DNA from: a virus
DNA length: 64,000 bases
Direction: 5' to 3' (one strand)
IMG/VR virus record: IMGVR_UViG_3300027899_000008
Positions 16,877 through 54,052 of the stretch are shown piece after piece. A program made the translations under genes and the position numbers. The notes beneath the pieces were generated by a model. The model was not told where the DNA came from. It did not search any database and saw only the letters and a list, made by a program, of their open reading frames with translations. Numbering within the stretch: the first letter of the stretch is position 1; each line of letters begins with the position of its first letter.

Positions 16877-17668
16877 TTAAAGTCTTACAATTTGTATTCT
16901 TGTTGCTTTATTGAAATTTGTTGTAAATGTTCCGAGATTGACACTTGCTGTATCTGTAATTGATGTGGCGACAGGACTTCTACATTGAATTGTGAAATAT
17001 TCATCAGCCGCTAAAGCAATGATAGCTGAACCATTTTGGGTTCCAGTTATTGCTCCAGCATCAGTATTAAGTGCTGGTTGAATTAGAAGAGAAGTGAAAC
17101 CATACACATTATTTAATGGAGCATCATTTGAGAGGAATGCTTTTTGAATCCATACACTTTTAGCAGGATTAACGTTTAAGCCTACAGGTCCACTAGGCAC
17201 AACCCAAGTAATCTGATATGTTACCAATAAATACATTATATTGCCAGAATTATTAGTAAATCTACCATTAGTAGTATAGGTTAGATGTGTGTCTGAAATT
17301 GTTTGTAATTCACTATTTGCAAATGTCAGACCGATAGGGATATTAGCAGCTACAGATAAAGTAGCATCAGAATATCTAGATATTATTCCACTAGGAGATG
17401 CTGACACCGAAAGATCATCAACATATGTCTTCAATGCTTTTTGTGTTGGTATTTTGGCATCGGATGGAGTAGTAAATGCGGAATCAATTGTTACTTCACA
17501 TCCAAATGTTATCGCTTGTCCAAATGTATTTCCGATATAAAATCCATAACTTCCTGATCCTGTTAGATTCGCACCAAGTTCGCCAGCAGTCAATCCTGAT
17601 CCAGTACTGACAGAATAATTTCCAGGTTTTGCATTTCCTTGTTTGATTCGTAATATTGGTTTTGCCAT
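16877..17668 (-). CDS. Putative virion fibre/decoration protein (paralog 1)
   Basis: IKQG..LTAGELG N-terminal module, KIPTQKALKTY, C-terminal beta-sandwich ending ATRIQIVRL. Confidence 0.65.
   Translation of the reverse strand: MAKPILRIKQGNAKPGNYSVSTGSGLTAGELGANLTGSGSYGFYIGNTFGQAITFGCEVTIDSAFTTPSDAKIPTQKALKTYVDDLSVSASPSGIISRYSDATLSVAANIPIGLTFANSELQTISDTHLTYTTNGRFTNNSGNIMYLLVTYQITWVVPSGPVGLNVNPAKSVWIQKAFLSNDAPLNNVYGFTSLLIQPALNTDAGAITGTQNGSAIIALAADEYFTIQCRSPVATSITDTASVNLGTFTTNFNKATRIQIVRL
17433..17521. repeat. 89-bp block identical to 18291-18379
   Basis: Direct comparison; encodes GQAITFGCEVTIDSAFTTPSDAKIPTQKAL in both paralogs. Confidence 0.85.
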
Positions 17669-17692
17669 GTTATGTTGCCGATTCTGATAATT

Positions 17693-18547
17693 TTACACTT
17701 TTACAATTTGAATTCTTGTTGCTCTATTGAAATTAGGTATTAATTGTCCAATACCTGTACCAATAGTTGCTGTATTTGTAGTAGTACTAGTAGCAACTCC
17801 ATGATTCTTACATTGAATTGTGAAGTATTCATCAGCCGCTAAAGCAATGGTAGCTGAACCATTTTGTGTTCCAGTTATTGCTCCAATAGTAGTAGAAGCG
17901 ATTGGTGGACATAGAAGAGAAGTGAACCCATAGATATTATCTGCTGTAACAGAACCACTAAATGCTTTTTGAATCCATGCACTTCTTACTATTTCCCTGC
18001 TATTATAAGATCGATTGCTATTAACTCCAGTCCAAGTAATTTGATAACATATCAATAAATTTATTGTACTTGTAGTGTTATTGGTAAATCTACCATTATT
18101 AGTACCAGTACTAGTATAGGTTAGGTCGGCAACGCCAGCGTTAACGGCAAATGTTGATGCAAATTCATCAGATGCAAATAGTTGAGTTGCAATTGCATTA
18201 CTACCTACAGATAAAGTAGTATCAGAATATTTAGACATTATTCTAACGGGAGCGCCAGCGTTTCCAGCTACCGCAGCAATATATGTATTTAATGCTTTTT
18301 GTGTTGGTATTTTGGCATCGGATGGAGTAGTAAATGCGGAATCAATTGTTACTTCACATCCAAATGTTATCGCTTGTCCTAAATTATTTCCAATATAAAA
18401 TCCATAACTTCCTGCTGCTAGATTTGCACCAAGTTCACCAGCAGTTAATCCACTGGTAGCAGTAACTATTCCATTGGTTAGGGTTTGAGTATAAGGTCCA
18501 GGCTTACCACTAATTCCTGTTTTTATTTTTAGTATTGGTTTTGCCAT
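17693..18547 (-). CDS. Putative virion fibre/decoration protein (paralog 2)
   Basis: Tandem paralog of 16877-17668 with identical blocks. Confidence 0.65.
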   Translation of the reverse strand: MAKPILKIKTGISGKPGPYTQTLTNGIVTATSGLTAGELGANLAAGSYGFYIGNNLGQAITFGCEVTIDSAFTTPSDAKIPTQKALNTYIAAVAGNAGAPVRIMSKYSDTTLSVGSNAIATQLFASDEFASTFAVNAGVADLTYTSTGTNNGRFTNNTTSTINLLICYQITWTGVNSNRSYNSREIVRSAWIQKAFSGSVTADNIYGFTSLLCPPIASTTIGAITGTQNGSATIALAADEYFTIQCKNHGVATSTTTNTATIGTGIGQLIPNFNRATRIQIVKV

Positions 18548-18553
18548 GTTAAT

Positions 18554-19393
18554 TTACGTTTCTGATATTTTTACAATTTGAATGCGAATACCCTTTGCAG
18601 CTCCAATTTCTGGATCGTTCACAATATTATTCTGTCCACCTGTTCCAATATCTAACGATAAATCATTCGACCGAATTTGATATACTAACTGCAATTCCCA
18701 TTGATTTACACCACTCACATACTTCGGTAGTCTAACACAAGCATTTCCAGAAATCAAGGTAGGAAGAGATGAAAAAGATGCAGTTCCAATCACTGGAAGC
18801 ACTACCTGCATTCCATAGTATGTAACATTTGCTGTATTTATAGTATCTATGACCCTAAGTCCAGCAAGTCTCCAATATCCAATATTTCTTCCTTCTGGAT
18901 CAATTGCATTACTATCTACTGCCGAAATCTGAAGACTATAAGTTACATTTAAAATCATTTCCGTCTTTGTGGTTTGATAAAATCCAGTAGGATTACCAAG
19001 ATTTGGATCATCTATCTGAAGATTCATATTTGTGGATTTAACTATCACAGCACTACTGAGGTCAATATTCTGTAATGTTGAACTTTGATTTGCTGGATTT
19101 GCAAAAATGGTAGCAAATAAAGTGTCCTTTGGTGCTTGAGGTCCAGCTACAAGTTTTGATGTTATATATTCCTTTGCTGCTTTCTCTGTGGCAATCTTAT
19201 TATCGCTAGTATTTGTTCCACCAAGAGTTATAGCAGTATCGACTTCTGCACCAATAATAACAGCAGATCCTGATGCTATTCCAATATAGAGTCTATTTGT
19301 TGCCAAATCAACACCCAACTCACCAGCAGTGAGTTGGGTGGTTGGGGGGATAATACCTCTTTTTATCTTTACAATTGGTTTTGGTCTTGCCAT
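18554..19393 (-). CDS. Putative virion fibre/decoration protein (paralog 3)
   Basis: IKRG..LTAGELG, DNKIATEKAAKEY, IRIQIVKI. Confidence 0.65.
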   Translation of the reverse strand: MARPKPIVKIKRGIIPPTTQLTAGELGVDLATNRLYIGIASGSAVIIGAEVDTAITLGGTNTSDNKIATEKAAKEYITSKLVAGPQAPKDTLFATIFANPANQSSTLQNIDLSSAVIVKSTNMNLQIDDPNLGNPTGFYQTTKTEMILNVTYSLQISAVDSNAIDPEGRNIGYWRLAGLRVIDTINTANVTYYGMQVVLPVIGTASFSSLPTLISGNACVRLPKYVSGVNQWELQLVYQIRSNDLSLDIGTGGQNNIVNDPEIGAAKGIRIQIVKISET

Positions 19394-19410
19394 AATATAG
19401 AAGTTTCAAA

Positions 19411-22400
19411 TTAATAGGTTCCGCAATCGATTATTGTGCCATCTGCAAGTGTCTTATTATATATTGTCTGTTGTGCTAACTCATTACCGCCAGCATAATT
19501 GCTATCTGCCGCTGGACTTCTACCAACATCCACAAGTTGAGTATAATTATTAGTTGCAGGGGTGCGAATACTAATATTTCTGATAGCAGAACCATCGCCT
19601 GTTCCTTGGTATCGAATTTTCAGAGCATTGGCGGCAGACTCACTAGAACCCGAATCAAACTCAATTGACCTATTGAATGTAATACCGACACCATCAACTA
19701 CACCCAATTGTACTTTTGCAGAGTTTGCAAGAGTAATATTTGCTTTATTTGCTGAACTTGTCGTCGGACCAGTGATCGCAGCAAAACCTTTAAGGTCTAT
19801 TCCAGTGGTATTGCTGCTTGGATTGTTAGTGATTGCCGCTTTTAGCGAAATTACAGCATTCGCATCGGCAGTGATACCAACATTGTTAATTTCACTGAAT
19901 CTTGCTGGACCTAATCTTCCTGAATTTATAATAGTGTGTTCGAAGATGCCTTGGCTGGTGGCAACCGTCGTTGCCTCGATAATATATTTAAATACTCCAT
20001 CATCTTGATCTATACCAATAAAATTTGTTACAGGTCGCACAGCGATTAACTGTGTGGGGACGCCACCAACACCCATTGCTCCATATGGAGTAGGATTAAA
20101 GGAGAATAGAAGAAGACCTCTATCTCCATATTTATTAATAGTAGTACTTGAATTAACCGAGTTCATCTGATCAGAATATCCAGTAGATGCAGAAATTCCA
20201 CCAATTCTGAGCAATGGACTTTCGGTAGAAAGGTCCGCTACATTGAAGAATGCTGTTCCACCATGAACATAAATGGATCCATTTACAACAAGATCGCCAG
20301 TAAGTCCAAGATTTCCACCATTGAATACACTTGTAGTATTATTTCCAGCAGCATACAAACAACCAGTGGTAGCATCGATGAGTTCACCAGTTAACCAAAT
20401 ATCTTTCTGAACAAATATAGAGTCTCTAGCAACAATATCAGCATGAAATACTGCTGTACCTTTTAAATTCTCTCTGTTCCCAAGGTCTTTCGTATAATTA
20501 TACGGCAAATGATCCAACGTACATAGAGGAAGGCTTGGAGGATACTGATTACACTGCCCACCTGGACATCCGTCTGGGTAAGCGGTAAAATCATAAACTT
20601 CATTAATATATCCAGACATAGTTTCTGGATTTGGGAATCCTAGAAGTCGTATTTCTGCATGTAGCCCTGCCATACTCGGATCAAAACCAGTTGACCTATC
20701 CAGAGTTCCTTCTCTTGCACGAAGAATCAATATTCTTCCGGGTGTCGTATTCGATCCATCAAACTGAGTATAATTATCTGGCGCAAATGAACCTTCTCTC
20801 CAACCAGAATCGATACCATGACCTGCAGCTGTAAAGGTTCCAGTGAATCCACCTTCAACTACATCGGTAATCAATTTGCTATATTCGGTAGGAGTATCTA
20901 AATAATCTATATCAGGTGAGGCTTGAGGAATTCCACTTTCTCTAATAGTGGCAATCTCAAGTATTTGGTATCCGATTCCTAAATCAACAGGATTTGTTAC
21001 AGCTGGAATTTTTACTTGACTAGCCAATCCAATATAAAGGTCACCATTCTTAGTAGATACACCGGTGTTTTGCTTAGTAATTAATCCATCTTGTCCTATA
21101 ACATTTATATTTCCAGTAACTCCAGATGCACTATTTGCTACAGGAGGTGTAGCAGTATTATATGTTCCATGGATAGATGAAACTGCACCACCACCACCAC
21201 CAGCAGTTGAATTAATGGTAAGAACATTATCCTCTCCAGTTCTTGTTAATTCTATATTGGTTCCAGCACGAATTTCCAAGTTTCCAGAATATCCAGTTGC
21301 GCCGAGTAGTGTGGAATTACTATTATATGCACTTATTCTGTTGACACCAGCATTCCATATCAACATAGTGTCATTACCACTCATAATACCCATGGAAATA
21401 CCAATACCACGACCTGGAACAACATTTAAGTTAGCAATCGCATTTGCAGCAGTAAGTATTGTTGAATTTGCTCCTTTTACTCCTCCAAGATAAATTCCAC
21501 CATTATTTGCGTATGGCGTTGATGAGACAGGAGTTACTACAAAAGACTTATATTGCATACCAATATACTCATAAGTTATAGTATTATTATTTTTAGTTTG
21601 TGCTACACTGAGTTGCGGGATGGGCGGAGATCCGTATCCAGGACCAACGGCGAGCAGTACTGCGCCAGATAATCCAGACTGACCAGTAGCAGATAAACTT
21701 GTAATACCTCTATTGATTGTTTTTAGACGATTATTATTATCATCATATACATAATCTATTCCGTAATTATTTGGTCCATAAAAATTTGTGATTCCAGGAT
21801 ATGCAGCATCTTGGACTGCTTGTGCAAAATTTAATGGCAGCCCGTTGTTAAAATCTAGAGCTTTGGTTGTATAGCTGGTAATATGACCATATACATTAAA
21901 TCCAAGATCAAGCAATTGTGGTGTATTATTAAGATATGCCACATGATTAGAAGCTGCAACACCAGAATTAGCGTGTGATAACTGAATACCTGTAGTACCC
22001 GGAGTATCAACAATACTCGTCGTAATTACACCATCAACGCTAACTGCTGACCTAAGCAATACACCAATATCTGCTGAGAATCCATCAAGACTATGTATTG
22101 GAGAGAAGGTATTAATAGTTCCAGTAAATCCACCAATGGAGGTAACACCATAATTCTGTATTAGAAGACTACCAGCTGCATTAGATGAACGCAAGGCAAT
22201 ACCAGCACCACCAATAAATGTTATTCCATCAATCGCAGATTTAGCTTTGACTGCATCACCAAATGCATTTCCAATAATATTAAATCCAGTGAATCCTTTA
22301 ATAACTCCAGTATTACTAATAGTTACATCATACTGAGTGCTACCAGCATCTTGATCTGAAGTAATACCAATACCTGGACCAGCGCGAAAGGTAGCACCCA

Positions 22401-22755
22401 AAACTTGATTCATTTTTGTCAGATTAACCCAATCGCGAACTGCTCTAGTAGTAGGAACGGTAAAATCACTATATCCTACAAAATCATTAAGACCACCACC
22501 AGAACCCATATTAGGATCATTCGATATCTGCATTCCAATTGGAATTATATTAAGAGTAGTAGCTCCAGGTACAATGCCTCCGAATGAGTTAACTCCATCA
22601 TAACCAGTATATCCACCACACGCACCAATATACAGAATATTACCTGTCTTGTTAAAGGCAAATTCTCCAGCAGTTATGCCAGCTGTGCCAGCTGGGTTAG
22701 ATGGGGTAGGTACACCCGAACCTCTTTTGATCTTAATAATTGGATTATTTGCCAT
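19411..22755 (-). CDS. Long tail fibre-like protein (1114 aa)
   Basis: IKIKRG..AGEFA N-terminal module, repeated AG.GI...N.GV.S fibre motifs, GDRGLLL module, C-terminal DCGTY. Confidence 0.7.
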   Translation of the reverse strand: MANNPIIKIKRGSGVPTPSNPAGTAGITAGEFAFNKTGNILYIGACGGYTGYDGVNSFGGIVPGATTLNIIPIGMQISNDPNMGSGGGLNDFVGYSDFTVPTTRAVRDWVNLTKMNQVLGATFRAGPGIGITSDQDAGSTQYDVTISNTGVIKGFTGFNIIGNAFGDAVKAKSAIDGITFIGGAGIALRSSNAAGSLLIQNYGVTSIGGFTGTINTFSPIHSLDGFSADIGVLLRSAVSVDGVITTSIVDTPGTTGIQLSHANSGVAASNHVAYLNNTPQLLDLGFNVYGHITSYTTKALDFNNGLPLNFAQAVQDAAYPGITNFYGPNNYGIDYVYDDNNNRLKTINRGITSLSATGQSGLSGAVLLAVGPGYGSPPIPQLSVAQTKNNNTITYEYIGMQYKSFVVTPVSSTPYANNGGIYLGGVKGANSTILTAANAIANLNVVPGRGIGISMGIMSGNDTMLIWNAGVNRISAYNSNSTLLGATGYSGNLEIRAGTNIELTRTGEDNVLTINSTAGGGGGAVSSIHGTYNTATPPVANSASGVTGNINVIGQDGLITKQNTGVSTKNGDLYIGLASQVKIPAVTNPVDLGIGYQILEIATIRESGIPQASPDIDYLDTPTEYSKLITDVVEGGFTGTFTAAGHGIDSGWREGSFAPDNYTQFDGSNTTPGRILILRAREGTLDRSTGFDPSMAGLHAEIRLLGFPNPETMSGYINEVYDFTAYPDGCPGGQCNQYPPSLPLCTLDHLPYNYTKDLGNRENLKGTAVFHADIVARDSIFVQKDIWLTGELIDATTGCLYAAGNNTTSVFNGGNLGLTGDLVVNGSIYVHGGTAFFNVADLSTESPLLRIGGISASTGYSDQMNSVNSSTTINKYGDRGLLLFSFNPTPYGAMGVGGVPTQLIAVRPVTNFIGIDQDDGVFKYIIEATTVATSQGIFEHTIINSGRLGPARFSEINNVGITADANAVISLKAAITNNPSSNTTGIDLKGFAAITGPTTSSANKANITLANSAKVQLGVVDGVGITFNRSIEFDSGSSESAANALKIRYQGTGDGSAIRNISIRTPATNNYTQLVDVGRSPAADSNYAGGNELAQQTIYNKTLADGTIIDCGTY

Positions 22756-23426
22756 TAATATGCTCCCGCATCAAGTGCGATATCTGTTATATTTTCTAAT
22801 TCTGCATTCAAGGTAGAACCCCTAAATGCTGTCTTTGTTATAATTTCCCCATCGACTAAAAGATTACCTTTTATATTTAGGTTTCCAGTTAGTTGAACAT
22901 CAGTCCCAACACCCCCCATAGTTATACCATTTCCAAACATTAAAATAGGGGTTTGAATGTAATTTTGAATAATTACGATTGGAGTTAACCCAATCTTTAC
23001 ATCTCCAGTGGATCCAGTAACTGATATTTCATTCGTAGTTCCAACCAAGGAACCAAGTCCAAGACTTTTCCAATCAGTACCATTATAATAATAAAGTTTA
23101 TCATCGGCATCGTTATATACGATTCCACCTTGATTACTTTTTGGATTACTCACATCCACATAAAGAGCAAAAGCACTAGTCGTTCTTATCACTATATCAT
23201 TGTTGGAAAGACCAATTATTGTTCCAAAGTCTCCATGTAGTGATGCTGCATTTCTTATTATATATTTGGAACCTGGAGTCAAATCGGGACTCAGTGAGTT
23301 ATTTTCCTGTATTCCCTTGATTCTATAATCAATATTTGAGGTATCCATCAGATAGAAAAACGCTGTGCTTGTGACATTTGCAGCACGATTCTTCTGTGCG
23401 ATATTGGAAATCAGTTCAATTGGCAT
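22755..23426 (-). CDS. Putative virion structural protein
   Basis: YNDADDKLYYYNGTDW and GTTNEISVT..VKIGL fibre motifs; C-terminal DAGAY. Confidence 0.55.
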   Translation of the reverse strand: MPIELISNIAQKNRAANVTSTAFFYLMDTSNIDYRIKGIQENNSLSPDLTPGSKYIIRNAASLHGDFGTIIGLSNNDIVIRTTSAFALYVDVSNPKSNQGGIVYNDADDKLYYYNGTDWKSLGLGSLVGTTNEISVTGSTGDVKIGLTPIVIIQNYIQTPILMFGNGITMGGVGTDVQLTGNLNIKGNLLVDGEIITKTAFRGSTLNAELENITDIALDAGAY

Positions 23427-24497
23427 TTATGTCACCGAAATACTTACTATACCTAAATTACCCTGTTCGCTTCTCCACACAAAATAGAATTCGCTGTAAC
23501 CATTAGCATTGGTATACTCAATACTTGTTGGTTGTTCTTGAAATCCACCTTCAATATTTGTTGCGTTATCTCTGAAAATAGCAGTTCCAAATCTTGCTGG
23601 ATATGCATAGTAAAGATAATACGGATTTGCATTATCCTGCTGTATAGTTGTATTTATCGTAAAAGTTCTAGAACCATTCAGAACAGGAGTCAATGTTGAT
23701 GGTAAAGTGGTGATGGATGTTTGCTGAGATTGTCCATAGAAGATATGATTATAAAAATAAAGATTATAGTCTTTGGTCTTATATACTTCAGCACCATCGG
23801 TATTCGTTCCAGTTATTCCTATCTGTATAGTATAAAAATCGCTATTGGGTAGATTTACATTATTTACATATGTCAATGATTTATACTTTAAAGTATGGGT
23901 TCCATTAAAATTAAATGTTTTAAATTCAGGTAACGTTATCACATCAGGAAATCCTGTATAATTGACAACATTTGTATTACTAATTTTTATAGTTCCCGCA
24001 CTCGCTGCTTGGTTATATGTCATAGTCGCAATATAACCAATTAATAGAAAATCATTACTTGGATCCCCCGCAAGTTGAGGACTCAATCCTGATATATCAT
24101 ATGACAGAATGTCGAATTGAAATTCTGATTTACGAAACACATCGTAGTTCTTGATGTAGTCGAAGGACACACTTCCGTCTTCTTGAAGAAATGCTACCTT
24201 TCTGGCAGGACCAGTATCACCACTAAATATGGTTGGAGCAATATGTTGTGATGGAGTATATGGTGTACCAATATCTGGTTCATCCAATCTTATCGATACT
24301 TCAACGATTCCATCTGGACCAGAAACCGTGATACCGATTCCACCAGTGATTCCCATAACATAATTGCCAGTGAATCCAGCACCATTGGCGCCACAAATTC
24401 CAGACGAAGACCACGCATAACCATTCCACCGCCAACGAATTCCGTTGAAGATATAAAGCTGATTCAATGATGGTCCAGTTGGAAAATTTAATGGCAT
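23427..24497 (-). CDS. Putative virion structural protein (MPLNFP family)
   Basis: MPLNFP..W.WNGYAW head module; YLYYAYPARFG C-terminal domain; TATAAATA late promoter upstream. Confidence 0.6.
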   Translation of the reverse strand: MPLNFPTGPSLNQLYIFNGIRWRWNGYAWSSSGICGANGAGFTGNYVMGITGGIGITVSGPDGIVEVSIRLDEPDIGTPYTPSQHIAPTIFSGDTGPARKVAFLQEDGSVSFDYIKNYDVFRKSEFQFDILSYDISGLSPQLAGDPSNDFLLIGYIATMTYNQAASAGTIKISNTNVVNYTGFPDVITLPEFKTFNFNGTHTLKYKSLTYVNNVNLPNSDFYTIQIGITGTNTDGAEVYKTKDYNLYFYNHIFYGQSQQTSITTLPSTLTPVLNGSRTFTINTTIQQDNANPYYLYYAYPARFGTAIFRDNATNIEGGFQEQPTSIEYTNANGYSEFYFVWRSEQGNLGIVSISVT

Positions 24498-24504
24498 ATC
24501 ATTG

Positions 24505-24512
24505 TATTTATA
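24505..24512 (-). promoter_or_regulatory. T4-type late promoter
   Basis: TATAAATA just upstream of ATG 24497; gp55 is encoded in the window. Confidence 0.75.
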
Positions 24513-24521
24513 CCATTGGCA

Positions 24522-24701
24522 TTAATCATTATTATCATTCAAATCTAATATTTCATTTTTTCTTTGCTCACTAATGATATTAAGATAAACCAAATAATTC
24601 ATTCCCTGTAATGTCATGGGATGGATATTTTCTATTTGGTGTGCGGATTGACATAATTGTAAAAAATCTGCCAAACTAGTATGCGAGATATTTAGTTGAA
24701 A
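24522..24701 (-). pseudogene. 5'-truncated remnant of a small tail-associated gene
   Basis: 59-codon open frame with no ATG at its 5' end: ..LADFLQLCQSAHQIENIHPMTLQGMNYLVYLNIISEQRKNEIL.., resembling C-termini of small phage tail proteins. Confidence 0.45.
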
Positions 24702-25013
24702 TCAGACATCTTCTGCGTCAAGGAATATTGGATTATATCCCTTTACATAAAGGTATGCTTCATGAATGATGTCTATTCCCTGAGGCTGCATAACAATAGC
24801 AGAAAAGTATTGTAATGCCAACTCTCCTGATGCATTAGTAATCCTGCTTAGTAATGGTTTTTTACCACTCTCTCGGGCTTCTGCTGAAATATATCCAACC
24901 ATGATGATTTCAATGTTATTGGTGATCCAATTGGAATTTATCTCGGATATCTTCCAATATTCCGCATAGACTCCAGTATCATCTTCTGTATAGATTTTCT
25001 TTAATAGTGCCAT
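24702..25013 (-). CDS. Small tail-associated protein (paralog of 33337-33639)
   Basis: Shared MAL..TG...YWKI..GY.S..AR...K.PL..AYL..K pattern. Confidence 0.6.
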   Translation of the reverse strand: MALLKKIYTEDDTGVYAEYWKISEINSNWITNNIEIIMVGYISAEARESGKKPLLSRITNASGELALQYFSAIVMQPQGIDIIHEAYLYVKGYNPIFLDAEDV

Positions 25014-25028
25014 TGTTGTTTCCTTGTA

Positions 25029-27893: not shown

Positions 27894-27902
27894 GATATTT
27901 CC

Positions 27903-28532
27903 TTAGGAGAATGTTAATTTTGACCTGATTGCGGATGCATAGCAAGCCTGTGCATCATTGGCTACACGCCACAACTGGTGAACTGGACCTTCCATAATAT
28001 TACCAACAACCTGATTTGTTAAAGAATATGGATTTGCCGATGAAACAGCAACTAATTGAGCAGATCCCGATGAAATATTCACATTTGCCGTTGCCGTCAC
28101 TGTTCCAGAAACGGGGATAGTTGCATTTACTTCGGTTGATGCCGCAGCATTATTTGTTCCAATTGCTTCAATCGTAACTCGTTGTCGCAACTTGCTGTCT
28201 ACAACAGCATTGCTTTCCAACAACTTGTTCATTCTTCGGAGTAGATCGTGTAGACTCTCCTCATAGGAGGGAAGATCCACATAAATCTGCAACCGATCGG
28301 TTGATGCCATTGCAGAAGTATTGTAGTCTAGTGTAAGAATATTATTATTAAAACTGACAGCACCTGTCGTTGGATCTGCAAAATTGTAAATAATGGTGTT
28401 GGCAGTGGTGTTGGTTATCAGAAGAAAATTCTGAAGTGAGACAGCCTGAGCAAGACCACTCAATGTAATGGTGTTTGATGCTGGGGTGAAAGTGTAACTT
28501 CCTACTGCGTCTGTTCCTAGTAATTTCTTCAT
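27903..28532 (-). CDS. Putative virion structural protein
   Basis: YTFTP..LLITNTTANTIIYNFADP..LTLDYNTSAMASTDRLQIY, typical of phage fibre-associated proteins; TATAAATA at 28542-28549. Confidence 0.6.
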   Translation of the reverse strand: MKKLLGTDAVGSYTFTPASNTITLSGLAQAVSLQNFLLITNTTANTIIYNFADPTTGAVSFNNNILTLDYNTSAMASTDRLQIYVDLPSYEESLHDLLRRMNKLLESNAVVDSKLRQRVTIEAIGTNNAAASTEVNATIPVSGTVTATANVNISSGSAQLVAVSSANPYSLTNQVVGNIMEGPVHQLWRVANDAQACYASAIRSKLTFS

Positions 28533-28544
28533 TGTTACCTCTAT

Positions 28545-28814
28545 TTATAATGCTGTTGCCATTGCAATTACGAATGCATTTGTTGCTCCACCACCTGCGG
28601 GACCAGTAGCACCAACAGATCCTGTTGCTCCATTGGTTCCATTTGTACCTGTTGCTCCTGTGGCTCCTGTAGCACCTGTTGCTCCCGCAGACCCATTGAT
28701 TCCCACCTGTGCTGATGACAATGCATTCCAAACAGTTCCATCCCATTGCCATGAGTTAGAACCACTGGTGTAGATTTGGTTGAGTGAAGGTGTATCGGGA
28801 AAATTAAGCGGCAT
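28545..28814 (-). CDS. Short collagen-like protein (MPLNFP family)
   Basis: MPLNFP head, short G-X-T tract, C-terminal AFVIAMATAL; CATAAATA at 28821-28828. Confidence 0.7.
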   Translation of the reverse strand: MPLNFPDTPSLNQIYTSGSNSWQWDGTVWNALSSAQVGINGSAGATGATGATGATGTNGTNGATGSVGATGPAGGGATNAFVIAMATAL

Positions 28815-28911
28815 TATTGTTATTTATGTTAAAATTATAGAGCAACTGTTGCAACAAAAGTATCAAGAACGATTTCGAGGTTGTAAAGTTCTGCGTATTT
28901 CATATATTAAG

Positions 28912-30332: not shown

Positions 30333-30335
30333 ATG

Positions 30336-30860: not shown

Positions 30861-30881
30861 TATATACCTCCATAGTATTTA

Positions 30882-32996: not shown

Positions 32997-32997
32997 A

Positions 32998-33318: not shown

Positions 33319-33336
33319 TTAGTATTTATCTGCAAA

Positions 33337-33959: not shown

Positions 33960-33983
33960 TAGTATTTCCTTTAATATTTATGC

Positions 33984-41152: not shown

Positions 41153-41164
41153 ATTATATACCTT

Positions 41165-47145: not shown

Positions 47146-47158
47146 GTATATACTTTCA

Positions 47159-48235
47159 TTATAGTATTTCTGAATATAAAGTCAACAACTTTGATTCTAT
47201 TGTTTTATAATAATAATTATTATTATACTTTTCTAAAGTCTTATTATGTTTTTCATAGTAATGATTCGAATCATCTCTCAATCGTTTCAATTCATCAATA
47301 TAATCACTTAAGGAATAGGCAATCAAACCACAATCAGATATCTGCTCAACATGACCCATATTTAAACCTGGATGACTAACAATAGGAATACCATGATACA
47401 TTGCTTCTATAATAGAAGCGGAGCAAACTTCTCCGTCAGATCTTCCATGTGTGTATACATCTATTCCATCTAAAAATTCATGAATAGTATCAACATTTGA
47501 ACTAAAATCTAAAAATACAATATTTTTCAATTTCAATTCAAGTGCTTGTTGGCGATGTATATCTGATCCACCCAACATAACAAAATAAGTATTATTTGTT
47601 TCTACATGGGAATATGCAAGTAGTGGAATGGGAGAAAAAATACCAGGATCATTTCTTTGATGCATCCCATAAACAAATGCATCATCTGGTATGTTAAATT
47701 TTTCCCTTAATTTTTTTGAATAAACATCTGGAACATACACAATACTAGGAATAATTATTATTTTTGAAGAATCTCCACCAGCAGCAATCCATTTATCTGC
47801 TTGCCACTTACAAAGCAATATTGATCTATCCACTATGCTTATATGATCCGACATATTTCCGTGAATGCTGTCTATTAATTTTGGTCCTATTATATCGGTG
47901 AATGGAAATTCTGGAAAACCAAATCTAGCAGTTTGCACAGCATCGTATTGTCTTGGATCAAATACATCCCATATATTAGAACCGATCCAGTTTTTCCTAT
48001 ACTCATCATATGCATCAACATGAATAGGAATGGTCCTAATACCATAAGATTCTACTACCTTTTTTCTTTCTTCTGAATTTTCTGGATGTTTCCAGTCTGT
48101 TCCTATCCTTGGAGCATTATTAGTATAGTAATAATCAACATCATATTTTGTCTTCAAAATACATGCCAACGTTTGGAGGTATTTTTCAGTTCCTCCAGAT
48201 CCAAGTCCCGCAAATTTAATACAAGCAATTTTCAT
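47159..48235 (-). CDS. GT4-family glycosyltransferase
   Basis: GGTEK; DVYTHGRSDGEVCSASIIEAMYHGIPIV. Confidence 0.85.
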   Translation of the reverse strand: MKIACIKFAGLGSGGTEKYLQTLACILKTKYDVDYYYTNNAPRIGTDWKHPENSEERKKVVESYGIRTIPIHVDAYDEYRKNWIGSNIWDVFDPRQYDAVQTARFGFPEFPFTDIIGPKLIDSIHGNMSDHISIVDRSILLCKWQADKWIAAGGDSSKIIIIPSIVYVPDVYSKKLREKFNIPDDAFVYGMHQRNDPGIFSPIPLLAYSHVETNNTYFVMLGGSDIHRQQALELKLKNIVFLDFSSNVDTIHEFLDGIDVYTHGRSDGEVCSASIIEAMYHGIPIVSHPGLNMGHVEQISDCGLIAYSLSDYIDELKRLRDDSNHYYEKHNKTLEKYNNNYYYKTIESKLLTLYSEIL

Positions 48236-48866
48236 TTTTAAATAAATCATCATTATTACTAATTTTATCGTAGTAAATATAACCTTTAGACTTCATAAAC
48301 GAATGGATAATCTCTTGATATAATGGTCGAGATGAAGTTTCTATTAAAATATAATTTATATTGAATTCATTAAAATTAAAATTTTTAAGTGCTTCGAATT
48401 CATATCCTTCCAAATCTAAAGATAAAAAATCCACATGTATAATATTATTTTCTTTTAATATTGAATTTAAAGTTTTTGCTGAAACTGAAATTTGCTCTCT
48501 AGTTTTTATTTTTTGTATTATTTCGTTTTTAACTATTTCGTCATAGTAATCTAACTCAAGCAATGATGATGAACAAGCCATTAGACTTTCCCCACCACAA
48601 TCTTCGTTAAAATTCCCTGTCATGCAATTAATTGTTTCGTCGGGAGAAATTGCACAAGAATGAAAAATATTTAATGAACTTCTATGTTTTTTACAAAGTT
48701 CCATTTTTTTTATATTTGGTTCTATCAAAATACCTTTCCATCCTAGATTTTTTTCAAGATATAAAGTATTGGATTGCCTTATTCCATCATTAGCACCAGC
48801 TTCAATATAGAATCCGTTTTTAAAATTTAATTCAGAATGTATTAAATCAGGTAAGAGTTCACCCAT
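48216..48866 (-). CDS. FkbM-family methyltransferase
   Basis: YIEAGANDG..SNT..LE..GWKGILIEP, SLDLEGYE. Confidence 0.9.
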   Translation of the reverse strand: MGELLPDLIHSELNFKNGFYIEAGANDGIRQSNTLYLEKNLGWKGILIEPNIKKMELCKKHRSSLNIFHSCAISPDETINCMTGNFNEDCGGESLMACSSSLLELDYYDEIVKNEIIQKIKTREQISVSAKTLNSILKENNIIHVDFLSLDLEGYEFEALKNFNFNEFNINYILIETSSRPLYQEIIHSFMKSKGYIYYDKISNNDDLFKNENCLY

Positions 48867-49572
48867 TAGATTGCCTCAATGTACTTTTAAATTTTCCATG
48901 TTCAGATCCCTGCTTAACTAAAGAAGGTTCCCACCAATAAACTTTATGATTATGTTTAAAATGTTGGTGACCAAGTTCCCAATCTGAAATTAGATTAAAA
49001 GGAAACCATGTTGATGCTAAATCGACAATAGTTTTCTTTTTGAAAACAATCGAATCTGCACACCTCGATGCTGGATGTGATTTCAAATATGCAATTTGAT
49101 TTACATTGATATCTGATGGTTTTAAATTTGCACCACTCCCAAAATAAATAGCATCCCAATCGTTTGGGGTCTGCAAAAGATAGTCATAAAAACGAGTATC
49201 AAATTCATCACAAAGAATAACATCATCTTCAAAAAGTATAAACATTTCAGCATCAATTTTACTCAATTGCTGAAATACTTTTCCAAATTTTATAGTCAAT
49301 GATATTTCTGCGGGATTGCATTTTTTGGGATGATACCCTAATGCTGCTGTTCCCCAAAGACCTACCTTTTCTGACCATTCATTTGGATCTTCCATTCCAG
49401 ATATATAATGACACTTAACAAAGTGATCTGTTAATTCATTTGCATCATAATCTTCATAAAATGAATAATTAGAAAACCCAAATTTATTCAGCTGATCTAA
49501 CATATTTTGTTTGCGATCAGTAAGTCTTTTACAATGTAAAATAATGGTTTGAATATCAATACCCATAATCAT
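48859..49572 (-). CDS. GT25-family glycosyltransferase
   Basis: DRKQNM, EISL, LFEDDVIL, WDAIYFG, QGS...ST. Confidence 0.8.
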   Translation of the reverse strand: MIMGIDIQTIILHCKRLTDRKQNMLDQLNKFGFSNYSFYEDYDANELTDHFVKCHYISGMEDPNEWSEKVGLWGTAALGYHPKKCNPAEISLTIKFGKVFQQLSKIDAEMFILFEDDVILCDEFDTRFYDYLLQTPNDWDAIYFGSGANLKPSDINVNQIAYLKSHPASRCADSIVFKKKTIVDLASTWFPFNLISDWELGHQHFKHNHKVYWWEPSLVKQGSEHGKFKSTLRQSNG

Positions 49573-50254
49573 CCTCTATTTGCAATTTTCCTGCATGTTC
49601 ACTTCTACAATCATACCTTCTATTTATAGAAGCAAGATCACCCCTCAAAACACACTCTGCTGTATCCTTGAAAAGTTCTACATTCTGCTTGAATCTTGTT
49701 TGAAACAAGTGATATATCTTATCATCAAAAATTGTACCAATTCCATAATATCCATATCCCGAGAGTCTCCATATTCCTCCAGCAGGAACGGATTGAAATG
49801 ATATAGGAAAGTTCATCTTCAATCGTAATTCGGCATCTACTGCTGCTCTTGTAAATTCTTGAGCAATATCAGATCGTATATTATTTACTGCACTTGGTTT
49901 TCCTATGCGTTCATAATATGGCTTACTAATCACTAAAAAAGAAGGAGCACAAAATAAATCATGTTTTGCTTTTATACAATTAGTAACCTGTGCGTTTCCA
50001 ACCATATACCCATTTGCACAATATTGTATTGCTTCATCTATTGCCTCTCGTTTAAGAGGTATGCAATCAGAATCCAGGAATACAAACACATCAGCATCTA
50101 TATTATTCATAACATGATCTATCCAAAGACCATGATTTATATTTTGCTGAGTGTAATTAACATCTAGATCAAAATGGGTCATTACCTTTTTGTGACATTC
50201 AATTACATTATGATCTGTATTATCCCAATATAAAGTGTTTACCGATACTTTCAC
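49556..50254 (-). CDS. Putative GT-A glycosyltransferase
   Basis: FLDSDCIP DxD motif; position inside the glycan island. Confidence 0.6.
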   Translation of the reverse strand: MKVSVNTLYWDNTDHNVIECHKKVMTHFDLDVNYTQQNINHGLWIDHVMNNIDADVFVFLDSDCIPLKREAIDEAIQYCANGYMVGNAQVTNCIKAKHDLFCAPSFLVISKPYYERIGKPSAVNNIRSDIAQEFTRAAVDAELRLKMNFPISFQSVPAGGIWRLSGYGYYGIGTIFDDKIYHLFQTRFKQNVELFKDTAECVLRGDLASINRRYDCRSEHAGKLQIEDDYGY

Positions 50255-51093
50255 TTTACTCTCTTTATGATATTATTATAGACCCCATCAAGTGAGAAAT
50301 ATTCTTCATACACTTCCTTAAGTCGAGTTCTCATAGTTTCAACTTGTTCATCAGAAAATCCTGCCAAGACTTCGGGGATATATGGAATCTGATCTTCCTC
50401 AATCAATACTGAGAACTCTTCCCAATTCAACTCATCTTCCCATGGGAGATAATAATCATTTGTGATTATGACTGGAATTGTCTGCAACTGCATTGCTTCG
50501 TATAGTCTGAAACTATTCAACCCATATCCTCTCGGACACAACGCAAACTTGCTATTCGCTGTAACATTGACAAATGTCTCAAACTCAGAATTATTGATAT
50601 TTGGAAGAGACTCTCTCATATACATTGCAATATTCGTAGATGACTTACACGCTTCAAACATCTTCATACGGATGGGATGGGTGTTTGAACCAACAAACGA
50701 CGCTAGCAATTTCCTAGGCATGTTCTCTACCAATTGGATTGGCAACTTGGAACATACTAGAGGAATAGGTATGATGTTACTACCTTTCGCATTTCCACCT
50801 GCCGAAAAGCAAAGTGTATCTGGAGGAAGACCATGTGCTGGAGCATCGTCATGTTGACTGATTGTAAAATATTTTCCAGTGCTTGGAATAGTATTGAGAT
50901 ATGGTTGTAATTCACTGGTCTTATTATCACAATACAAAGTAGTCCAACTGACAGCAATGTAATCTCTACTTACCTCTGGATTTTCTTTAACAAATTTATT
51001 ATAGAAGTAATCCTCAAGATAATCACCTTGATGATAAGGTGGATAAACTGGATATTGGGGTGCTGGTCGGAATTGGTCTTCTGTATAAATCAT
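50251..51093 (-). CDS. Exostosin-like (GT47) glycosyltransferase
   Basis: ASFVGS..HPIR, SKFALCPRGYG..SFRLYEAM..IPVII..LPW. Confidence 0.85.
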   Translation of the reverse strand: MIYTEDQFRPAPQYPVYPPYHQGDYLEDYFYNKFVKENPEVSRDYIAVSWTTLYCDNKTSELQPYLNTIPSTGKYFTISQHDDAPAHGLPPDTLCFSAGGNAKGSNIIPIPLVCSKLPIQLVENMPRKLLASFVGSNTHPIRMKMFEACKSSTNIAMYMRESLPNINNSEFETFVNVTANSKFALCPRGYGLNSFRLYEAMQLQTIPVIITNDYYLPWEDELNWEEFSVLIEEDQIPYIPEVLAGFSDEQVETMRTRLKEVYEEYFSLDGVYNNIIKRVK

Positions 51094-51878
51094 AGTTTTG
51101 ATTCAATTTCATTAATAATGGAATATAATATTAAGTGTTCTGTGCTTATTGGTTCCAGCGTTTTATTAATAGGATTATATCTGATATGACCAAATGGTGC
51201 AGAATAAAATAAATAATCCGTAAGTTCAACTTTGTGGTTTATATCAGATTTAATAACAAACGCATGGGGAAACGGCAATCTATTATCAGGATTTAAATTT
51301 AATGAATTACTAGAACCTTCTCTCAAATCACTTTTATGATTATGATGAATTTTGATTGATTTGCATGGATTTTTCACCTTATATCCAGTGGTGATTAAAT
51401 CATAGGCAAATTTTCCGTCACATCCAATTTTGCCAAAAAAAGAATAATTAAAATTATTGATTATAGTTTTAAAATTTCCCTTATATAACCAACAATCCTG
51501 AGAAGTTCCAAATAAACATTTTGGATTGTGTAGTAGTCCATCATCTTCATATCTTGTTATTGTATAGATTTCATCATCTGCTATATCGTCTGCTAACTTT
51601 AATGTTTCATCGAATAAAATATCACTATTTGCTATAACATTGATGCTGTTAGAATCTGTGCGATTTTCTATAAATCGCAGAAAATCACTTAACATATCTA
51701 GATTTAATTCATATTTTACAATATCAGACTTAACAATGTTTGGCATATCATCACCAACAAATATATAAATTTCATCAAATAATTTTGATGTTATATTTGT
51801 ATTGATCGTAGTTATTATCTCATCATTTCTAACATCGTTTGGCGATTTCCAATATGAAATAAACAATTTATATTTCAT
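51090..51878 (-). CDS. Putative glycosyltransferase-like protein
   Basis: IANSDILFD, SQDCW, GCD..AY..NPC..I...H.H; position inside the glycan island. Confidence 0.55.
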   Translation of the reverse strand: MKYKLFISYWKSPNDVRNDEIITTINTNITSKLFDEIYIFVGDDMPNIVKSDIVKYELNLDMLSDFLRFIENRTDSNSINVIANSDILFDETLKLADDIADDEIYTITRYEDDGLLHNPKCLFGTSQDCWLYKGNFKTIINNFNYSFFGKIGCDGKFAYDLITTGYKVKNPCKSIKIHHNHKSDLREGSSNSLNLNPDNRLPFPHAFVIKSDINHKVELTDYLFYSAPFGHIRYNPINKTLEPISTEHLILYSIINEIESKL

Positions 51879-52543
51879 ATAAACCACATTCCTTCTTCTT
51901 TGAATTTATTCATCTTAGTTTCAATTCCAACCATATGATTGTTATGAACCATAATTGCCTTGTCCTTTATTCCTTTGGTATAATACAGATGCCCATTTGG
52001 AAAATACTCTATAGGTAATAATGCCACAATGGTTGAGTATTCTGTCAGAGCAATTTGATTGATGAGAATTTGGTCATCTTCTGTTTCATTCAATCCACAC
52101 TGCTCAATCATCTTGGAGCACTCTTCAGTGTTGTTGAATACCATAAGACCAGAGCAAATCATACTACCTGGAACATCAGTCTGAAACAAAACATATTTAG
52201 AATTAGCATTAAAGAAATCGATTGGATTCTGACAAAACACGATATCAGTATCAACCCAACAAAGTCTCTTGTGATTTCTGTATGTCTCGGATATCAACTT
52301 CCACTTTGACTTCACAATCTGCCTAAAGTTACTACTCTTGTCAAAAGACCATTCCTGATATTCAGTATATTTCTGATTTTTATATAGAAATGCTGTTGGA
52401 TATTGCTTCATCTGTTCATACGCAGTAGCATCCAAACAAGCAATGATGAAGTTCTCTGAACCAATGCCCACATTCTCTGCGGACTTCAACATGTTCTTAC
52501 ATATCTCTACGCAACCACTATTCAGTTGTGTTAAAAATTTCAT
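51875..52543 (-). CDS. Nucleotide-diphospho-sugar transferase (GT77-like)
   Basis: ACLD, WVDTDIVF..NP, CSGLM, DDQ, FPNG, HNN..K..K..GMW. Confidence 0.8.
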   Translation of the reverse strand: MKFLTQLNSGCVEICKNMLKSAENVGIGSENFIIACLDATAYEQMKQYPTAFLYKNQKYTEYQEWSFDKSSNFRQIVKSKWKLISETYRNHKRLCWVDTDIVFCQNPIDFFNANSKYVLFQTDVPGSMICSGLMVFNNTEECSKMIEQCGLNETEDDQILINQIALTEYSTIVALLPIEYFPNGHLYYTKGIKDKAIMVHNNHMVGIETKMNKFKEEGMWFI

Positions 52544-53205
52544 AAATTCCTCGCTAGATTATAATCTATACTTTCCTGTGGCAATCCCATCTCGCGAAGC
52601 GATTGTTCCTTGGATTCGTTGTCTGAAATTCCCATGGTAATCATTGGATTCATTCCTTGTGGAATATGAGTTCCAGGCCATATGGCATAATTGATTGGAA
52701 GAGCAGCGATCTTTAGTTTTGGAAGATAGATGGGAAGAACAAATGCCATCAATATTTCATGGTCGAATACTTTTCGTTGAGTAGTTGATTTTATATTTTC
52801 CTCACATGAGGTAATCCAAAAATTCAAGAACTCAATCACCAGTTCATTGTAGGAGACATATATGGGAGATGCTTTTGGAATTGATAAATTTAAATTGGAA
52901 ATAATTGCTTGATAGGCAAATCCAATATCGCAATTTCCTTCCATCTCATCAAACACCTTCAATTCATCATGAAGTATAGAATCAACATCCATCCACACGA
53001 ATGGTTTCTTCTTTTCCATTAATACATCAAGAATGAACTTTGGTTTTGCTAGACAATTTAATCTATATTCGCCAAGAGATGGCAATTCCCGTATATCATG
53101 AGGCATATTATATTCATTACAATTTATACGCAATCGTCGTGCGTGATCGCTATAATATGTTTTATCGCCAATGTCACAATAAAAAGATACAATTTCAGTT
53201 TTCAT
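52540..53205 (-). CDS. Putative GT-A glycosyltransferase
   Basis: KPKFI..WMDVDS DxD motif; LPINY. Confidence 0.65.
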   Translation of the reverse strand: MKTEIVSFYCDIGDKTYYSDHARRLRINCNEYNMPHDIRELPSLGEYRLNCLAKPKFILDVLMEKKKPFVWMDVDSILHDELKVFDEMEGNCDIGFAYQAIISNLNLSIPKASPIYVSYNELVIEFLNFWITSCEENIKSTTQRKVFDHEILMAFVLPIYLPKLKIAALPINYAIWPGTHIPQGMNPMITMGISDNESKEQSLREMGLPQESIDYNLARNL

Positions 53206-53206
53206 A

Positions 53207-54052
53207 TTAAAGTTGCTTTATTTTAGAATAAAGATAATCGTCTGCCATTTGTAAATCAATACATGTTTGATAATTTTTCAATGCTGATTCAATCTTGGAT
53301 TCAAACAATTCTTTGGTCAAGATTGTAACATCAAAATTAGGTGAAAGCAATACAAATCCATTGATATCAAAAATATCACCAATATCAGGAGCACCCCAAT
53401 AGATTGGAATGGTTCCAACCATAAAGCAATCAGTTAATTTTTCTGTGTAGTATGTGGTATAGCTATCATTCTCAACTACAAAGGAGAACATGTAATCCTT
53501 GAGTCCTGGTGTCTTATCCCAAGCGTCAATGCCAGAAATTCTTGGAGAGTCATTTACCCCACCATAAATGTCAATGACATCCTTGAATGTTGTAGCAATC
53601 GCATTTCTCAGTTTGTGTCCATATGCGTAATTCTTAGAAGAAGCAATTATAGAACACTGCTTAGTCTTCTCAATGGACATATCTTCCGATAGGGGCTTAA
53701 TCCATGGGAGATTACTACCAGCATATGCAAATTGTATCTTTGGGTGAATGGAGAGCAATTCTCTTTCGGAGGTGAACACAGCATCGTAGTGTTCACAAAT
53801 TTTCTCCAGATTATTCATCCATGTATCGCGAGGAACATGCATGGTGTGAAAAATGGTCCTAGATTCGCAAACCCATGCGACCTTTACCTCACCTTCCTTT
53901 TTCACATATTCAATACCAGACATAATAGCACCATCAATGAATACCTTGATGGGACAATCTTCCAATGTCCATTGAAATCTTTTTGGTTTTAAATCAGAAC
54001 AAGATGAATGTTCTATAACAAACGGCGCACCAATTGCTTGCACTTTTTCCAT
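53207..54052 (-). CDS. GT10 (fucosyltransferase-like) glycosyltransferase
   Basis: YMFSFVVEN..YYTEKLTDCF..GTIPIYWGAP. Confidence 0.85.
   Translation of the reverse strand: MEKVQAIGAPFVIEHSSCSDLKPKRFQWTLEDCPIKVFIDGAIMSGIEYVKKEGEVKVAWVCESRTIFHTMHVPRDTWMNNLEKICEHYDAVFTSERELLSIHPKIQFAYAGSNLPWIKPLSEDMSIEKTKQCSIIASSKNYAYGHKLRNAIATTFKDVIDIYGGVNDSPRISGIDAWDKTPGLKDYMFSFVVENDSYTTYYTEKLTDCFMVGTIPIYWGAPDIGDIFDINGFVLLSPNFDVTILTKELFESKIESALKNYQTCIDLQMADDYLYSKIKQL

Follow-up and report, generated by a model that had tools for sequence, protein, structure and literature searches.

Introduction

In C. difficile, the glycosyltransferase (GT) SgtA combines a GT-A domain with four TPRs, and its gene directly precedes bclA3, which encodes a collagen-like exosporium protein; the purified enzyme adds beta-O-GlcNAc in vitro to threonines of peptides from the BclA3 collagen repeats, and the primed glycan is extended by further, unknown enzymes (PMC7157674). 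Here we analyze a 64,000-nucleotide stretch of viral DNA (IMG/VR record IMGVR_UViG_3300027899_000008, hereafter the window) in which the locus at positions 16877-54052 encodes an enzyme of similar layout, GT2-TPR, between a set of sugar genes (the glycan island) and a set of fibre genes (the fibre island). We propose that GT2-TPR probably glycosylates the collagen-like fibres of the phage itself. As in the SgtA/BclA3 system, a GT-A domain is followed by TPRs, the gene adjoins one for a Thr-rich collagen-like surface protein, and, in our proposal, a priming sugar would be placed on collagen-repeat threonines in the cytoplasm and then extended by other enzymes. SgtA differs in that it is a bacterial spore protein and not a viral one, in its length (358 amino acids (aa) versus 408 aa for the phage enzyme) and in having no large sugar island attached.

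The best sequence and fold matches of GT2-TPR are the glycocin S-glycosyltransferases SunS and ThuS (PDB 7msn, 7msk) and the Listeria flagellin O-GlcNAc transferase GmaR, which have the same two-domain layout and act on protein or peptide acceptors. Their acceptors, however, are the cysteine of a small bacteriocin or flagellin; in the phage locus neither a small Cys-rich peptide gene nor a peptide exporter lies beside GT2-TPR, on which ground a glycocin-type bacteriocin locus was rejected. Cytoplasmic, sequential O-glycosylation of surface proteins is also represented by serine-rich-repeat adhesins (GtfA/B plus extending GTs) and by the heptosylation of autotransporters by TibC/AAH. In these systems, as would be the case here, a priming GT is followed by variable soluble GTs that act on the protein before export, and they provide a precedent for heptose on Ser/Thr; the window differs from them in its enzymes, as a Pfam scan of the island found no GT9/BAHT-type or GtfA/B-type enzyme.

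Glycosylation of virions by virus-encoded enzymes produces the capsid glycans of chlorovirus PBCV-1 and the fibril glycans of Mimivirus. For mycobacteriophages, the placing of O-glycans on the capsid and tail tube by phage GTs is established (Freeman 2023, as cited in later work). Soluble GTs with sugar-nucleotide genes, sugar methylation, lineage-specific clusters and structural-protein acceptors inside the cell are common to these systems and the window, whereas the enzyme families and acceptors differ, the acceptor proposed here being the collagen-like fibres of a T4-like phage that is known from its genes alone. In pelagimyophages and cyanomyophages, tail-fibre genes are interspersed with numerous GTs and heptose/deoxy-sugar genes in a hypervariable "host recognition cluster", which has been read as modifying the host O-chain against co-infection (PMC7029224); similar host-modification readings have been given for jumbo cyanophages (PMC7824862) and for the lipopolysaccharide (LPS) genes of S-SCSM2R and P-SSM2 (PMC12801897). 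These clusters resemble our locus in belonging to aquatic T4-like phages and in forming a hypervariable region with fibre genes, GTs and sugar genes, but they lie between VrlC and gp14 in the structural module, whereas the window island lies between regA and gp43 and has an SgtA-type anchor beside collagen fibres. A literature search of incomplete coverage returned no proposal of an SgtA-type enzyme with collagen fibres in T4-like phages.

Results

GT2-TPR resembles enzymes that glycosylate proteins and peptides

39302..40528, minus strand: GT2-TPR, predicted protein glycosyltransferase (SgtA/GmaR/SunS type), 408 aa; Pfam GT2 and TPR; right anchor of the glycan island

The N-terminal GT2 (GT-A) domain of this protein is matched by Pfam PF00535 (E 3.5e-12), and its C-terminal TPRs by TPR_16 at an E-value of 2.5e-5, which is below the cut-off; the AlphaFold2 (AF2) model (pLDDT 90.6) shows ten helices at residues 176-386. 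Two motifs, the nucleotide-binding DTGSTD and the DxD motif DADD, are invariant in 34 homologues. A sequence search of the PDB returned GmaR (2.4e-10), SunS (1e-6, with an alignment that extends into the first TPR) and ThuS, and the only GT match among 18,950 NCBIfam models was the SunS family TIGR04195, at 1.2e-9 and far below its equivalog cut-off. When the model was searched with Foldseek, ranks 1-6 were full-length matches to SunS/ThuS (E 5e-16 to 1e-13), the next being wall-teichoic-acid-type GTs (TarS) and RmlT at 3e-7; consensus TPR proteins and the TPR domain of OGT were also returned.

Relatives of GT2-TPR are numerous: IMG/VR has at least 161 of them, and metagenomes contain over 6,000 protein clusters. 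Cellular homologues (loci L177-L254) share 40-46% identity with the phage enzyme and are frequent in Mycobacterium and other Actinomycetota, sometimes with several per genome; homologues also occur in metagenome-assembled genomes of Planctomycetia and Burkholderiales. A census of the neighbours of 78 cellular homologues found no conserved neighbour, and was not used given the unreliability of open reading frame (ORF) calling in high-GC DNA. A 36% identical GT2-TPR is encoded by Tunturiibacter phage Tunturi_5 (L255, PP885688.1 37023-38126), an unrelated 309-kb acidobacterial phage, where, in a setting close to that in the window, genes of nucleotide metabolism (thymidylate synthase, dCMP deaminase, dUTPase) stand on one side of it and a tail-fibre block on the other.

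GT2-TPR genes lie beside collagen genes in phages and in bacteria

Collagen runs lie 0.1-1.5 kb downstream of GT2-TPR in the window. Among the 52 phage loci with at least 3 kb of sequence downstream of GT2-TPR, 42 carry a collagen run of at least eight triplets, at a median distance of 1.0 kb and with a median Thr share of 41% at the Y position of the Gly-X-Y triplet.

The association was then examined from the collagen side in bacteria, using 120 loci (L256-L375, each at most 8 kb) that were picked by a (GPT)5 DNA pattern alone and scanned with a profile of the phage GT2-TPR family. A homologue was present in 24 of the 120 (for example L257, L267, L271, L332 and L335), and in 20 of those 24 it lay within ~800 bp of the repeat and is therefore the gene adjacent to the collagen repeat. 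Five actinomycete loci, at least three of them from Streptomyces, encode homologues 36-39% identical to the phage enzyme over 350 residues; the others, mostly from Bacilli and Clostridia (including Bacillus and Virgibacillus), show 23-27% identity over ~300 residues, and C. difficile is not among the (GPT)5 loci listed. The neighbouring ORFs include 13 Pfam Collagen proteins and two with a BclA C-terminal domain. In three genomes (8.9, 7.3 and 3.8 Mb) a single GT2-TPR homologue is present and stands beside the collagen gene, the chance expectation of one copy falling in such an interval being about 1 in a thousand. The presence of GT2-TPR beside collagen genes thus looks like a general SgtA/BclA3-type pairing in bacteria, and it is mainly because of this linkage, in bacteria and across the phage family, that we consider GT2-TPR a probable glycosyltransferase of the phage's own collagen-like fibres.

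The fibre island is rich in threonine and collagen repeats

The window is part of a distant T4-like phage, and every gene in it is on the minus strand. In T4, regA is followed by gene 43; in the window, ~37 kb (16877-54052) is inserted between regA and gp43 and holds both islands. The GT2-TPR gene follows 3' of the glycan island (54052-41165), and is itself followed by 21 Thr/Gly-rich fibre-island ORFs (39269-16877), an arrangement that matches the claim of an earlier note on this DNA that the sugar genes lie directly upstream of about 20 fibre-type genes, apart from a few small ORFs (100-174 aa) that are not evidently fibres. The fibre-island features are:

38298..39269, minus strand: fib323, 323-aa fibre protein; two fibre N-terminal motifs, GPT-type collagen runs at residues 194-217 and 271-285; tail-fibre PHROGs; NATAAATA 68 nt upstream
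37799..38236, minus strand: p145, Ig-like collar/adaptor of phage T5 p132 type; two genes after GT2-TPR; AF2 pLDDT 81.7 and Foldseek
34856..37792, minus strand: 978-aa collagen-like fibre protein, proposed main acceptor; Pfam Collagen 2.3e-59
16877..34871, minus strand: 18 further fibre-island ORFs; composition, paralogy, PHROG tail-fibre or virion-structural matches

The island is distinguished by its composition (Thr 12.6%, Gly 12.4%, charged residues 12%) from the rest of the window (Thr 5-6%, charged residues 24-26%), and several of its ORFs match tail-fibre or virion-structural PHROGs. The 978-aa collagen protein contains 159 GXY triplets, 88 of which have Thr at Y, in fifteen runs of at least four triplets and nine Pfam Collagen stretches. 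An N-terminus of the "KIKRG..TAGEL" type is common to six proteins (fib263, fib284, fib279, fib1114, fib318 and fib704), and an "MPLNFP..W.W.G..W" N-terminus is shared by fib356, coll89, fibN106 and also fib323; the remaining ORFs are p954/p209, p295, p223 and the small ORFs. The 89-aa "collagen protein" (28545-28814) and a 106-aa ORF (32998-33318) consist of just the fibre N-terminal motif and a short tail, and may be 5' remnants of longer fibre genes instead of full fibres; the 134-aa ORF 28348-28752, which overlaps the 89-aa ORF, is probably spurious. The pattern G-x-[ST]-G was considered as a sequon and rejected, since its enrichment outside long collagen runs (46 versus 16 expected) can be accounted for by short collagen-like stretches.

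The side fibres of phage T5 are anchored by its protein p132. The top Foldseek matches of p145 are T5/DT57C tail-tip chains of ~140 aa (8hqz_Q/T and 7qg9_L/J; E 1e-6 to 1e-5, TM 0.60-0.64), which, from their length and with the entry titles alone as description, we take to be the Ig-like collar protein p132; p145 also matches PHROG 3304 (1.8e-4). A flexible Gly/Thr loop of p145, modelled with low confidence, contains the invariant G63 and the almost invariant T65. Among 74 loci, p145 is the gene directly after GT2-TPR in 33, and 53 have it no more than 10 kb away. A prediction of a complex between GT2-TPR and p145 from separate alignments, run without controls, scored 0.01 and counts neither for nor against contact.

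The late-promoter-like motif NATAAATA occurs 21 times on the coding strand versus 7 times on the other strand of the whole window, and 11 copies are found no more than 80 nt upstream of a start codon, where ~2 would be expected. Of these 11, eight stand before fibre-island genes, another before regA at the head of the glycan island, and one within that island; six of the 18 ORFs in 16877..34871 are preceded by a copy (example sites are 24505-24512, 28542-28549 and 54498-54505). The strict form TATAAATA is not enriched overall (7 copies versus 7.8 expected), and all 7 copies are on the coding strand. NATAAATA is probably the late promoter of this phage, and its placement fits late expression of the fibres while saying little about the glycan island.

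The glycan island encodes glycosyltransferases, methyltransferases and a putative heptose route

53207..54052, minus strand: GT10-like glycosyltransferase; Pfam Glyco_transf_10, 26.5 bits versus cut-off 23.9; left anchor of the island, directly after regA
52540..53205, minus strand: p221, probable GT-A type transferase; protein-atlas feature score 0.98 to Nucleotid_trans/GT34-type clusters, a lead only
51875..52543, minus strand: Nucleotid_trans (GT77-type) glycosyltransferase; Pfam PF03407, E 2.1e-14
51090..51887, minus strand: p265, putative viral glycosyltransferase; atlas score 0.99 to auto-named viral "putative glycosyltransferase" clusters, a lead only
50251..51093, minus strand: GT47 (exostosin-type) glycosyltransferase; Pfam PF03016, E 7.5e-26
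49556..50254, minus strand: p232; no match in any library; counterparts of 66-76% identity in two related islands
48859..49572, minus strand: GT25-like glycosyltransferase (weak); Pfam GT25 21.5 bits, under cut-off 24; PHROG 2835 glucosyltransferase, E 1.4e-5
48216..48866, minus strand: FkbM-type methyltransferase; Pfam PF05050, E 3.6e-22
47159..48253, minus strand: GT4 (GT-B) glycosyltransferase; Pfam Glycos_transf_1, 29.3 bits versus cut-off 26.4
46444-47145, minus strand: fusion of HAD-IIIA and RfaE-domain-II-like nucleotidyltransferase; Pfam; NCBIfam rfaE_dom_II 7.6e-21; HAD part short and weak (6e-5)
45752-46447, minus strand: TylF/Methyltransf_24; Pfam
45177-45809, minus strand: GmhA-like SIS protein; Pfam; NCBIfam gmhA 2.1e-13
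44485-45180, minus strand: transaldolase; NCBIfam transald_staph 2.5e-92, above the equivalog cut-off
43496-44488, minus strand: HddA-like GHMP kinase; Pfam; NCBIfam HddA 9.3e-33
42600-43499, minus strand: SDR epimerase/dehydratase; Pfam
42043-42630, minus strand: Methyltransf_24; Pfam, E 3e-22
41165-42046, minus strand: Glyco_trans_1_2, CgeB-like GT; Pfam, E 9.8e-16
40530-41048, minus strand: Methyltransf_24 cassette; Pfam, E 7.7e-17; low GC

The GC content of the glycan island is 0.25-0.38, versus ~0.40 in the flanks, and its genes are contiguous or overlapping, packed as in an operon; a scan of the island for sigma-70 promoters and terminators gave nothing above the shuffled background. Six GTs exceed the Pfam cut-offs (GT10, Nucleotid_trans/GT77, GT47, GT4, Glyco_trans_1_2 and GT2-TPR itself), and inclusion of the one below cut-off and the two language-model leads brings the tally to between 7 and 9. 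The GT types named in the earlier note are thus present, its count of about ten being slightly generous, and the four methyltransferases that it listed are all recovered above Pfam cut-offs, three of Methyltransf_24/TylF type (40530, 42043 and 45752) and one of FkbM type (48216). No match was found for p221 in Pfam, NCBIfam, PHROG or PDB, or for p265 in the profile libraries, and phmmer searches of the PDB with p221, p265, p232 and the GT25-like protein returned nothing meaningful.

The transaldolase, GmhA-like, HddA-like, HAD/nucleotidyltransferase and SDR genes together make a plausible NDP-heptose route, in line with the heptose genes reported in the earlier note; only the transaldolase is above its equivalog cut-off, the NCBIfam assignments of the other proteins of the set being best matches far below theirs. 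The same gene set is present in the related locus L066 at 63-70% identity. Transaldolase, usually listed as a phage metabolic gene, yields sedoheptulose-7-phosphate. Because it sits within the heptose operon, between the GmhA-like and HddA-like genes and in identical order in L066, its position suggests that it feeds sedoheptulose-7-phosphate into sugar-nucleotide synthesis, not into general pentose-phosphate flux.

Related loci share conserved ends around variable contents

Phage relatives follow a common layout of regA, GT10-p221, a variable middle, (SDR)-GT2-TPR, p145 with collagen and variable fibres, and dUTPase-DUF1599-gp43. The left anchor GT10 plus p221 follows regA in all 35 of the close relatives that have at least 5 kb downstream, and the glycan island ends at GT2-TPR in every relative that has one. 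Between these ends, the middles of related islands hold 642 ORFs that fall into 258 clusters, and are rich in SDR epimerases/dehydratases, GDP-mannose dehydratases, FkbM and C-methyltransferases, DegT aminotransferases, nucleotidyltransferases, TPP enzymes and GT2/10/25.

In the window, an 88-nt direct duplication of the 5' end of GT2-TPR (41157-41070 and 40534-40447, with 5 mismatches) brackets the methyltransferase at 40530-41048, and the upstream copy is a short remnant ORF. The duplication looks like a recombination scar left by cassette insertion or island exchange at the right anchor, and the conserved ends, variable middle and scar fit one locus whose content is exchanged between its ends.

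Glycan and fibre islands are found in varied company. Some relatives carry regA-GT2TPR-dUTPase with neither island (L067-L079), some a fibre island without a glycan island (L028-L035), some a glycan island with p145 only, and others both. GT2-TPR is present in all of these combinations and is therefore a core gene, around which the islands come and go independently. A search for Gly-X-Thr runs in five "minimal" relatives (regA-GT2TPR-dUTPase), in records that are 4-25% complete and thus too fragmentary to be informative, gave no match.

The locus carries no visible export machinery and no hydroxymethylation route

A hydropathy scan of all 71 window ORFs found none with two or more transmembrane (TM)-like segments, in agreement with the earlier note, which saw no flippase, polymerase, ligase or lipid-carrier transferase. 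The upstream islands of 80 related loci (~60 glycan islands) likewise contain no polytopic membrane ORF, save two marginal two-segment ORFs, and the multi-segment ORFs found downstream of GT2-TPR in relatives are out-of-frame reads of collagen genes. Two relatives of 154 kb (85% complete) and 146 kb (80% complete) encode no polytopic membrane protein, their only candidates being antisense artefacts. Thus neither an initiating polyprenyl-phosphate sugar transferase nor a flippase/ABC exporter, polymerase or ligase is present in the window, the related islands or the two near-complete relatives.

A Pfam scan of the window ORFs identified ThyX and an N6/N4 methylase, with no ThyA-type hydroxymethylase and no TET/JBP; PF00303 is absent from five related records (60-85% complete), and no T4 alpha/beta-GT family match was found in the island. 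Given that DNA glycosylation needs a hydroxymethylated base and that the window lacks such a route, DNA is an unlikely acceptor on the basis of gene content.

Other genes of the window

Outside the inserted locus, the window carries the replication and recombination genes RegA, gp62, gp44, gp45, gp46/47, UvsW and UvsY, along with a UvsX-like RecA, a primase-helicase, ThyX and a gp43 polymerase in split form that is at most ~47% identical to cyanophage polymerases. When 25 kb were searched by Megablast, none of 50,697 phage records matched, and the phage therefore has no close cultured relative. A SET-domain protein (58787-59518; Pfam E 7e-12) is encoded between two recombination nuclease genes, one gp47-like and the other gp46-like.

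Discussion

From gene content, homologies and comparative linkage we infer a cytoplasmic virion-glycosylation system, including its acceptor and sugars, its timing and the link between island and GT2-TPR, and we put the chances of the whole slightly below even. GT2-TPR would bind the phage's collagen-like fibre proteins through its TPR domain and move the first sugar onto Thr at the Y position of Gly-X-Thr triplets, as SgtA does on BclA3. The low-GC island would provide unusual activated sugars through the transaldolase-fed NDP-heptose route and the four sugar-type methyltransferases, and its seven to nine soluble GTs would extend the glycan directly on the protein with no lipid carrier, flippase or polymerase. 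The glycosylated fibres would then be mounted on the particle, probably via the p132-like collar protein p145. Because the island has conserved ends and a variable middle, recombination between GT10-p221 on the left and the 5' end of GT2-TPR on the right could swap whole glycan types. The earlier note had proposed that the phage builds methylated, possibly heptose-containing glycans on its own fibres. As far as GT2-TPR is concerned, a role as fibre glycosyltransferase is well supported by comparison with GmaR, SunS/ThuS and SgtA/BclA3 and by the collagen linkage; the further step, that the 13-kb island and the methyltransferases and heptose enzymes encoded in it work on this acceptor too, we infer less firmly, as the islands vary independently, and that the whole island builds on the same glycan as GT2-TPR is for us not quite an even proposition.

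Several points weigh against this proposal. The phage is uncultured and known from sequence alone, GT2-TPR is likened to SgtA by the published description of its architecture and not by sequence, and its identity to SunS/ThuS is just 14-18% in structural alignments. All four presence/absence combinations of glycan and fibre islands occur among relatives, so neither requires the other, and a shared insertion hotspot may be all that unites them. A lack of TM segments is equally a trait of peripheral GTs that act on undecaprenyl-linked sugars, for which flippase and ligase could come from the host. The literature on comparable clusters, in pelagimyophages, cyanomyophages and jumbo phages, favours a modification of host O-antigen or capsule (PMC7029224, PMC7824862, PMC12801897). 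Sugars, heptose among them, are also established on phage DNA, the heptose case having been shown with a HAD/kinase together with a cytidylyltransferase-like and a GT-B enzyme.

The independent behaviour of the islands could be explained if functions were split, with GT2-TPR putting a single sugar or short glycan on collagen fibres and the 13-kb island being a separate accessory module of the same plastic region, with a host surface polymer as its possible target or a soluble glycoconjugate as its possible product. The status of GT2-TPR as a core gene that occurs without any island, the fibre islands that lack a glycan island, the high plasticity of the regA-gp43 region (258 clusters among 642 island ORFs) and the insertion scar at the GT2-TPR start, which shows that cassettes land there, are all consistent with such a split. 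We nevertheless consider it unlikely, as GT2-TPR marks the right-hand end of every island and a conserved anchor of the island's own marks the left, the closely packed island genes share the orientation of GT2-TPR, and ~60 island versions contain no export or lipid-carrier gene. An equally improbable alternative is that the whole set, GT2-TPR included, alters the O-antigen, capsule or S-layer glycan of the host during infection, which would block superinfection or keep progeny from sticking to debris. The island does have the traits of an O-antigen/capsule locus, with clustered NDP-sugar genes and several GTs, low GC and high variability, and its gene families (GT25, GT4, GT10, SDRs, DegT, FkbM and heptose genes) are those of such loci; PEP-CTERM and outer-membrane-type proteins are encoded elsewhere in the window, and remodelling of the host is both the literature reading for pelagimyophages, cyanophages and jumbo phages and the usual view of "LPS genes" in aquatic T4-like phages. 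The papers cited here, however, gave no experimental evidence for surface remodelling by such clusters, the characterised relatives of GT2-TPR all act on proteins or peptides, GT2-TPR is linked to collagen genes, and an initiating phosphoglycosyl transferase and the other assembly and export functions are missing from the window, the related islands and the two near-complete relatives.

Hypermodification of DNA, in which island enzymes, especially the heptose set and the neighbouring GT4, would glycosylate hydroxymethylated bases of the phage genome, is very improbable. Heptosyl-5hmC has been described as the product of a HAD/kinase, a cytidylyltransferase and a GT-B enzyme, the island shares the replication module with the nearby dUTPase, DNA methylase and DUF1599 genes, and the Tunturi_5 homologue is also beside nucleotide-metabolism genes; yet the window has ThyX in place of any ThyA-type hydroxymethylase or TET/JBP, PF00303 is absent from the five relatives, the T4 alpha/beta-GT families are unmatched, and nine GTs with four sugar methyltransferases exceed any known DNA glycan. 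To explanations of other kinds we assign a small share of probability.

Glycosylation of the phage's own fibres is of a kind already known from SgtA/BclA3 and from phage virion glycosylation, and if it is correct, a widespread class of phage "LPS genes" would be reinterpreted. Large sugar-gene sets are found in many of the abundant aquatic T4-like phages, and for twenty years have been annotated as host LPS modification, without evidence. It is quite possible, though somewhat short of an even chance, that the large hypervariable "LPS-type" islands of these phages are swappable virion-glycan cassettes instead of host-surface modifiers. On this view, a conserved SgtA-like enzyme would prime collagen-fibre Thr while recombination at the conserved cassette ends would change the glycan coat, in effect giving the virus serotypes that evolve together with receptor recognition, grazing or defence. 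From the pairing of GT2-TPR with collagen in bacteria (24 of 120 loci), glycosylation is also predicted for many collagen-like surface proteins that have yet to be characterised. If the proposal holds for the phages, virion glycosylation would be widespread in environmental phages and not a curiosity of mycobacteriophages and giant viruses, the travel of sugar genes with fibre genes in hypervariable regions would be explained, and the locus would offer a simple model of protein O-glycosylation without lipid carriers, in which glycan type is an added layer of host range and particle stability.

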